This document shows positions 19,695 through 21,284 of a stretch of 64,000 bases of DNA, piece by piece. The position numbers and the translations under genes were made by a program. Source of the stretch: Dipteris shenzhenensis (lineage: Eukaryota); assembly GCA_047967505.1 (NCBI GenBank), contig CM106538.1. One strand, written 5' to 3'. The notes beneath the pieces are model-generated. The model was not told the origin of the DNA, ran no database searches, and saw only the letters and a program-made list of their open reading frames with translations. Each line of letters starts with the position of its first letter. Position 1 is the first letter of the stretch.

Positions 19695-21284
19695 CTATTT
19701 CTCCCAGGGCCTGCTGATCGGAACTCTCTTTTTGATCTTGATTGGAGTCTTTTTCTTCCTTATTGGCTTGATGTCGACTGTTTGTTTATCAATGCTTGCC
19801 TCTGTTGCTTGTCTGGGAGGGGTATCCTTTTCTTCAGCTGTCTCCACATGTTCTTCTTCTTGGATTGTGTCGCCTGATGCAATCATGGAGCCCTCCAGAC
19901 ATTTGGGCTCCTTAACACCACATGCTAATGCATAAGAAGTGTAAGACAAAAAGTAAGAGGCCCTAGAGGCCTGCTTATTCACATAATCTCCAAATATATC
20001 TATGGCAGACAACCTCTCTATCAAAATGATCTTTTCCTTTTGCCATGAAAGATCATGTCCACCTAAAACCCTGGACAAACATTTTAAGAAGTAAACAATG
20101 GCTTCTCCATTGTTGCTCAACTGCCTATGGTAAATCAAGATCTTAGCACTGCCTAGATCATGAATATAATGAGCTAGGCTTGATAGTTTACGAAACCCAA
20201 CCGGCCTGCTTCCACTTGATCTCTGGAGGAATGTGTCATCCTCAATTTGTAGCTGCCACATATCAAAAGATTGGAGTGAGACAATACACAACCTACAAAA
20301 CATTTAAGCAGAAGACAAAGTATTTGATTTGAAGTATCAAGTTCTTACCTTCTCATTTTCATAAGCAACAAGCAGTTCATCTCTCCAAAGATTTATTCCT
20401 CTCCCCTCCAGTCCAGCCTCTTCTTTAAGCTTTTCCGTGTATAGTGCTGAGAGATTCATAGCTTCCTATGTGAGCTGGAAGGCAGCTTCATCTGGCTCTT
20501 GGAACTTTTCAGCCTCTTTGAAACAAAAAGTAAGGGCCTCTGCAGGATCAAAAATTGTTTCCAAAGCTAATAGTGAATGGTCATCCTCTATGCCAACCTC
20601 CTTGTCAAGCCTTGAAGCCTGGGCAATAAGGGAAATGGCATAGTCCTCCCTCAAATTGAACATACACTCTAGATCATGGAGAAAACATAATCTTTTCCAC
20701 CAATCAAGACACTTGGAAGCATGGGCACTGCATAGTTGCTGCTTTGAACATCAAAATCTTCAACTGGTTGTGCTCCCCTAAGAGTTTTTGTCCTTAGTTG
20801 AACAAGGTCAAGAGCAGCCACTTGCAGCCCCTCATCCTGAAGGTTGATATCTTCTTCTTGCTCTGCCATTACTGTTACCAAAGGAACATCCTCTTTTTCC
20901 TCTGCTTCAGATGTGTCTTCTTCTTCAGCCTCCTACCCTTGTTCATCCAGAGAGTTCTAACTGAAGACAATGTACATAAGGAATGCCATGGTTTCCTCAA
21001 GCACTTTGCACTTTCTGGTGTGCAAGTTACAGATGAATTTATATTGATCAGGCAGGCTATCAGGCAGGCTGTCAAATCTTCTATTCACATGGTACCTCAG
21101 CCTGTCAATGGAGACAATATGATTTATATGCACAAAAACCTTTTCACCTTCCACAATTCTTCCTGCCTCTGTTAGTTTTTGAAGGTATCCCAATGGTCTG
21201 AACAAACTGCCCGTTTTGGGATAAGCTCACCCTCATCGTAGACCTCTGGAGCCAAAGTCTGTGAAATCGAGATGCAGACCCCTT
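19695..21284 (-). pseudogene. Decayed gene of unknown function, convergent with the RAG1-like transposase and 5'-truncated
   Basis: ORFs 20957-21205 and 20669-20881 share a frame broken only by TAG/TGA codons (compatible with CAG/CGA deamination). The frame then shifts to 20466-20663, followed by a GT..AG intron at about 20348-20293 and ORF 19695-20303. The product has an acidic tract (EEEDTSEAEEKED) and a basic C-terminus (KPIRKKKTPIKIKKR). No domain was recognised. Confidence 0.6.

Follow-up and report, generated by a model that had tools for sequence, protein, structure and literature searches.

A decayed gene lies tail-to-tail with a RAG1/Transib-fold transposase remnant in Dipteris shenzhenensis and may be the second gene of a dead land-plant transposon

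The stretch of Dipteris shenzhenensis DNA analyzed here (64,000 nucleotides; hereafter, the window) contains two decayed genes that face each other tail to tail. On the plus strand, the nearly full-length pseudogene of a RAG1/Transib-fold transposase occupies positions 16560-19352, as delimited with a profile of full-length relatives and a fold match, and on the minus strand a second pseudogene, referred to below as the partner, occupies positions 19695-21284, as delimited by ORF pieces, three-frame reading, HMMER, tblastn, and a profile scan. The two genes converge, with the plus-strand stop at 19350-19352 and the minus-strand stop at 19695-19697, and the stops are separated by an AT-rich, unique spacer of 342 bp (19353-19694), in agreement with the distance of about 340 bp given in a sequence-only reading of this locus. 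Within the spacer, a 32-nt direct repeat occurs twice, at 19365-19396 and 19431-19462. The same reading had described the second gene as decayed, intron-containing, encoded on the opposite strand, and lacking its 5' part, with a style of decay shared by both genes, and every one of these points was borne out: the partner remnant has three in-frame stops, one frameshift, and a homology-supported 96-bp intron, and frameshifts, at least one in-frame stop, and introns are found in the transposase remnant as well.

Elsewhere, the window carries a Helitron remnant on the minus strand (8942-12524), with ORF pieces matching Helitron_like_N (E=4e-55) and PIF1 helicase (E=2e-52), a second PIF1 fragment at 30099-30578, and fragments of LTR retrotransposons at 34176-34622 (RVT_1), 45356-46695 (integrase and RT-RNaseH), and 61268-62203 (copia-type gag). 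Minus-strand ORF pieces at 4038-5198 match the domains of elongation factor 1-gamma and GST_C (PF00647, E=1e-29); they could belong to a host gene, or the nearby Helitron could have captured them. A perfect palindrome with two 113-nt arms, 100% complementary and 5 nt apart, lies at 22970-23200 in a (CT)n-rich repeat field. Two long open frames, at 25590-26633 (plus strand) and 57347-58652 (minus strand), are built only from low-complexity CT/CCT-type repeats rich in Pro, Ser, and Leu, show strong GC skew, and, as far as examined, are not genes.

Four open pieces on the minus strand (20957-21226, 20669-20932, 20466-20750, and 19695-20303) spell one protein, the partner, whose remnant is visible from about 21226 down to the stop codon at 19695-19697. 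Its N-terminal module (20957-21226), delineated by local alignment with P0009, P0022, P0063, P0064, and P0067 and by tblastn of P0009, P0022, and P0067, carries a conserved VH followed by C-x2-H-x3-C, a candidate and possible zinc site, and ends at the stop 20957-20959. The middle exon region (20349-20956; three-frame reading, tblastn, and profile matches) encodes a helical module, 'LP..Y..L.DI..LF.LREDY.LA', and an acidic linker. The last exon (19695-20252), with 91% identity to P0001, encodes a conserved C-terminal alpha/beta domain and a basic tail (..IRKKKTPIKIKKRVPI..) that may serve as a nuclear localization signal, which it resembles. The stop at 19695-19697 is the authentic partner stop, given that the end of P0002 aligns with this tail. 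The chain of C-terminal motifs that typifies the family, 'DD.FL.R ... LSR.LGG ... KIILIEK ... FG ... R..YFL.Y.AYAL ... YGKH.LLR', was found in the window ORF except for the last motif ('YGKH..LR'), which is present in P0001 and P0002, against which the loss was judged, and has been deleted in frame near 19890.

The middle and last exons are separated by a phase 0 GT..AG intron of 96 bp on the minus strand (20348-20253), and splicing joins homologous blocks: '..YENEK' is brought to 'LQIEDDTFLQR', just as '..DENQK' adjoins 'LIVYDDDF' in the relative P0022. In P0064 and P0067, the ORF breaks off directly after the same 'DENQ(K)' motif, so the position of the intron is conserved in the family. In-frame stops interrupt the partner at 20466-20468 (within a conserved block), 20933-20935, and 20957-20959, and a frameshift near 20681 lies between '..KDYVF' and 'LHDLECMFNLREDY..'. 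Upstream, homology ends at 21284, the edge of the unique island described below, about 20 codons upstream of the family motif 'MFNP' (at about 21200 in the local alignment), leaving about 45 aa missing in comparison with P0063 and 165-210 aa in comparison with P0009. Neither the missing 5' part nor further copies of either gene were found in the window by tblastn with 182 proteins or by profile scans of 2,627 six-frame pieces, and none of the 182 proteins, drawn from both families, matched the window outside 16000-21400 in tblastn. The partner copy is a pseudogene, 5'-truncated at the island edge.

The 202-aa ORF of the partner retrieved 62 proteins at E<=0.001 in a HMMER search of 1.84 billion cluster representatives (24 at <=1e-10 and two at <=1e-30), the best being P0001 (91% identity, E=1.8e-73), and this number of relatives together with the best E value rules out a chance ORF. 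One of the 62, a Ras GTPase (P0057), was discarded as a spurious low-complexity match composed of 8 short matched stretches. In tblastn with 13 long relatives (278-768 aa), every query matched the window, and only between 19872 and 21163, with residues 214-593 of the 619 in P0009 aligning over 21133-19896. Family profiles matched the window ORF 19695-20303 with E=4e-35 (A5) and 4e-56 (A2), and among the six-frame pieces they also matched 20750-20469 (E=1.6e-6) and 20932-20672 (E=0.0055). The window copy and the relatives of 461-768 aa have conserved blocks in common, and the order of these blocks in the window is that of the family. Most of the 62 representatives, clustered at 50%, are only 60-180 aa long, corresponding to exon-sized fragments. 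The remnant is a member of a real, diverse, intron-bearing protein family.

Among the partner relatives, a species name is attached only to four hypothetical proteins from the fern Adiantum nelumboides, L7F22_054622, L7F22_008557, L7F22_008822, and L7F22_040444 (P0022, P0063, P0065, and P0066, respectively), and this fern thus holds at least four diverged paralogues of the family (40-79% identity). They share the N-terminal, middle, and C-terminal blocks of the window partner but are only 25-34% identical to it. Among the transposase relatives, the only one with a species name is P0129, a fragment within a chimeric A. nelumboides gene model, and the presence of both families in this fern is a weak indication of co-occurrence. 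The contigs that carry the remaining relatives come from ENA, Logan, or JGI and measure 0.5-38 kb, and JGI labels some of these relatives 'hypothetical protein'. In a prokaryote genome collection, patterns derived from A4, a transposase-family alignment, matched 44 stretches, none of which was confirmed; the alignments A1, A2, A3, and A5 contain no segment sufficiently conserved to yield a search pattern. One partner relative, P0021, has a SET domain (PF00856, E=1.1e-5) in place of its C-terminus; it is a chimeric gene model or else a genuine fusion, which would hint at a link to chromatin.

Searches at the level of domains and folds placed the partner in no known family. Pfam recognized no family in the partner pieces of the window, in 14 of the 15 relatives scanned, or in P0063 and P0065-P0067, the exceptions among relatives being the SET domain of P0021 and the spurious Ras match of P0057; in particular, no Myb/SANT-like DNA-binding domain of the PIF/Harbinger type was found. 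With the threshold relaxed to E<=10, five relatives gave no Pfam match, including Kelch and PHD. No match to the family was obtained in NCBIfam, in PDB sequences searched with the partner ORF and with the A2 profile, and the language-model atlas returned no usable match. The AlphaFold2 model of P0009 (mean pLDDT 53) contains two confident modules, at residues 345-400 and 495-612 (pLDDT 83-95), set among long disordered acidic linkers; the model shows short beta/alpha modules and no six-bladed propeller, at a mean pLDDT of only 53. The Foldseek comparison that the sequence-only reading had proposed was run on this model and yielded no match at E<=0.001 in either the PDB (best E=0.37, a glyoxalase-like protein with TM below 0.1) or the viral BFVD. 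The PHD finger is a feature of vertebrate RAG2 and is absent from some RAG2L proteins; the partner has a basic tail at its C-terminus and no PHD finger there, and the Pfam, Foldseek, and P0009 model results (mean pLDDT 53) show no Kelch propeller. What the partner does have in common with RAG2 is its convergent position beside a RAG1-like gene.

The identity of that neighbor was established through its predicted fold. Six pieces of the transposase remnant cover positions 3-713 of the 742-position profile of full-length relatives, and the gene is interrupted by introns, by frameshifts, and by one or more in-frame stops (18071-18073). Pfam gave no match for the window ORFs or for five full-length relatives, and neither phmmer nor hmmsearch of PDB sequences with the transposase ORF, A1, or A3 gave any. 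In the atlas, the 336-aa transposase ORF fell near RAG1-domain clusters with scores of 0.92-0.95, at a recognition value of 2133 that lies below the mark of 2300. An alignment (A3) was built from 114 relatives, and the 900-aa relative P0072 was modeled (mean pLDDT 76.1, pTM 0.64). Foldseek found 49 PDB matches to this model at E<=0.001, and all of those listed were mouse or zebrafish RAG1, amphioxus BbRAGL, or HzTransib; the best among those listed was 6dbl_A (E=1.8e-11, TM 0.50), HzTransib (6pqr_A) matched with E=1.8e-6, and the first match of another kind had E=0.017. Candidate catalytic residues D404, D501, and E779 (P0072 numbering) are conserved across the family and retained by the window remnants, as are C521/C524 (C-x2-C) and a C..H pair, as well as an H-x4-H motif located 19-20 residues before the candidate E. 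We take the D/D/E residues and the zinc ligands to correspond to those of RAG1 on the basis of RAG1 numbering and motif order, and with the triad assigned in this way, both the catalytic-core fold and the DDE triad of RAGL/Transib enzymes are found in the transposase. The model justifies the label 'RAG1-like', which the earlier reading had given to this neighbor, at the level of the fold. As a kind, the plant transposase is probably not new.

The history of the locus can be read from a repeat-rich segmental duplication of about 5.5 kb within the window (15863-16197 and 21422-24046 versus 26595-29753), whose copies are 94-96% identical. One duplicate carries a 5.2-kb insertion and the other does not, so the window has a built-in empty site. 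The left flank (15863-16197) corresponds to 26595-26921 (316 matches, 11 mismatches, 8 gaps) and the right flank (21422-22500) to 26946-28032 (1,048 matches, 27 mismatches, 16 gaps), and in the paralogous copy about 24 bp (26922-26945) stand in place of the insertion. Because the paralogous flanks are only about 24 bp apart, 16198-21421 (5,224 bp) is one insertion. Both genes lie within a unique island (16198-21284) that is absent from the paralogous copy at 26595-28032, where the flanks are contiguous apart from these 24 bp, so the claim that the two genes share one unique island holds. The transposase and the partner reached the locus together in one fragment.

The ends of the insertion are not those of a transposon and probably reflect a repair event. 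Between the island and the right flank lies a 137-bp filler (21285-21421) that is part of the insertion event and matches a neighboring repeat 240 bp downstream (21525-21661) at 133 of 137 bases and 15846-15982 at 130 of 137. Templated filler at the right junction suggests break repair, not transposition. About 24 bp of target was replaced, with no target-site duplication; the left end of the insertion (16198) has no CAC, and the right end of the island falls inside the partner gene. No inverted match between 16100-16700 and 21200-32000 was found apart from a microsatellite, and no CACNNTG occurs in 16100-16700, so that the CAC-type TIRs and 5-bp target-site duplication of RAGL and Transib elements are lacking in the present fragmentary copy. 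Both island ends are breakpoints, not transposon termini, and the copy is immobile, having probably arrived as a fragment by break repair, without its own transposon ends. A single insertion shows that the two genes were linked in the donor, not that they were enclosed by one pair of TIRs; since a breakpoint marks the left edge of the island and its right edge cuts through the partner gene, that they formed one element is something we infer.

Our favored explanation, with a probability of about 0.5, is that land plants have a RAG1/Transib-type DNA transposon with two genes, of which the partner, represented here by a dead copy, is the second. It is favored because the partner family is real, the neighbor has the RAG1 fold, only 342 bp without a repeat element separates the two stops, both genes share one insertion and are similarly decayed, and RAG1L-RAG2L pairs are convergent as well. 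The partner family itself looks transposon-like, since its relatives are mostly short fragments and several diverged paralogues occur in A. nelumboides. Against a single element, we count that the adjacency of transposase and partner is documented in one instance (this window), that the copy has no TIR, CAC terminus, or target-site duplication, and that some partner relatives are annotated as ordinary genes.

The strongest competing explanation, to which we give about half the weight of the favored one, is that the partner stems from another family of repeats or transposons, which happened to adjoin the RAG1-like element in the donor, and that the two were co-copied as filler during double-strand-break repair. 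An island without transposon ends, bordered by 137 bp of templated filler, is what a repair-type insertion would leave, and such an insertion is able to carry any adjacent DNA; the window is, moreover, dense in unrelated transposons (Helitron, Gypsy, and Copia pieces). The nearest relatives of the two genes also differ in closeness, at 91% for the partner (P0001, over the last exon) and 67.5% for the transposase (P0103, the nearest found), with search methods that differed between the two, and this gap could mean that copies of the partner exist without the transposase. These points are countered by the authentic 3' ends that both genes keep, since 342 bp leaves scant room for two sets of UTRs plus transposon termini, and by the partner relatives scanned, in which Pfam detected no transposase, reverse transcriptase, integrase, or helicase.

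We consider it improbable that the partner derives, whole or as a captured fragment, from a host gene of a lineage-restricted plant family with no role in transposition, which the transposon would have picked up or inserted next to. The hypothetical-protein annotations in a fern genome, the SET domain of one relative (P0021), and a conserved intron in the style of ordinary nuclear genes would all suit such an origin. However, introns are common in the genes of plant DNA transposons, and the great diversity and mostly fragmentary nature of the family (62 representatives at 50% clustering, most of 60-180 aa), its several diverged paralogues in one fern, and the lack of any Pfam or NCBIfam model for it all speak against a host origin. 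A reading of the partner as a strongly diverged RAG2-like protein has next to no probability, since only its convergent position adjoining a RAG1-fold gene suggests it, whereas the P0009 model (mean pLDDT 53) is alpha/beta with short modules instead of a six-bladed propeller, a PDB library rich in RAG1-RAG2 complexes contains no match to it at E<=0.001, the profile search of PDB sequences with the partner family was negative, and Kelch and PHD matches in Pfam are absent from its relatives even at E<=10. These results indicate that the partner is not RAG2-like and not homologous to RAG2, and the decision of the sequence-only reading to withhold that name, for want of visible Kelch repeats or a PHD finger, was sound.

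If the partner is indeed the second gene of a two-gene transposon, an intact element would encode transposase and partner tail to tail, and the partner product would be a nuclear accessory factor. To judge from its relatives, such a factor would have an N-terminus that is acidic or disordered, a small His/Cys module (a potential zinc binder), a helical module, and, toward the C-terminus, a compact alpha/beta domain with a basic tail resembling an NLS. It might help the transposase to find or cut the element ends by binding the transposase, DNA, or chromatin, a role comparable to that of RAG2L for RAG1L or of the Myb-like ORF1 for PIF/Harbinger. That the partner product binds or assists the transposase is a tentative proposal, clearly less secure than the two-gene element itself; any function assigned to this protein, whose fold matched no PDB structure, is pure conjecture. 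A complex prediction combining P0072 residues 356-890 with P0009 residues 200-619 scored 0.00 against a mark of 0.34, in a run that made no use of the alignments and in which the partner fold was uncertain; the score speaks neither for nor against an interaction. Were the two to interact, the partner may dock on the long insert of the zinc-binding domain of the transposase, which in P0072 spans about 235 residues between C-x2-C and H-x4-H. The equivalent region holds RAG2 in RAG1 and has been lost in Subgroup II Transibs.

Two-gene organization has precedents among plant DNA transposons, namely PIF/Harbinger (Myb-like ORF1 plus transposase), CACTA (TnpA/TnpD), and MuDR (mudrA/mudrB), which resemble the proposed element in coupling a transposase with a non-catalytic accessory protein. 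They differ from it in that neither of the window genes has sequence or Pfam similarity to their proteins and in that their transposases belong to another superfamily. Classical Transibs are described as single-gene elements, and the window transposase belongs to the same superfamily by fold (HzTransib 6pqr_A, E=1.8e-6). The closest parallel in layout is that of the RAGL/ProtoRAG elements of animals and the pelagophyte Aureococcus, in which a RAG1-fold DDE gene is likewise accompanied by a close convergent second gene (PMC7204232, PMC9435367). The earlier reading had invoked the convergence of such pairs as background, and RAG1L-RAG2L pairs are invariably convergent (PMC7204232). Unlike those elements, the window partner has neither a Kelch propeller nor a PHD finger, the host is plant-like, and no heptamer-like TIRs or 5-bp target-site duplication were found in the truncated copy of the window. 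Tao et al. (2022) counted 39 Transib-like proteins in plants, and their main text, which gives the plant members as a count only, names no second ORF (PMC9435367). Literature searches turned up that entry, 'plants (39)', and no account of a plant RAG1/Transib-like element that carries a second gene. A non-Kelch convergent partner would be new.

How RAG1 became dependent on RAG2 is one of the main questions surrounding the origin of V(D)J recombination. In the view put forward by Tao et al. (2022), the RAG2-binding region of the RAG1 zinc-binding domain predates RAG2 and was kept in Subgroup I Transibs (PMC9435367). Should the pairing at this locus be accidental, the two genes would be an ordinary pair of dead repeats. 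The broader idea that RAG1-family transposons of land plants have an accessory subunit of their own that is not related to RAG2, and that RAG1-type enzymes have recruited a partner at least twice independently, is a possibility we regard with some doubt. If it is true, a plant RAG1-fold transposase with a non-Kelch partner would constitute a second two-subunit machine of the RAG1 type, the purpose that the RAG2-binding surface served before RAG2 would become experimentally testable, and a protein family now known only as 'hypothetical protein' in fern genomes would receive a name.
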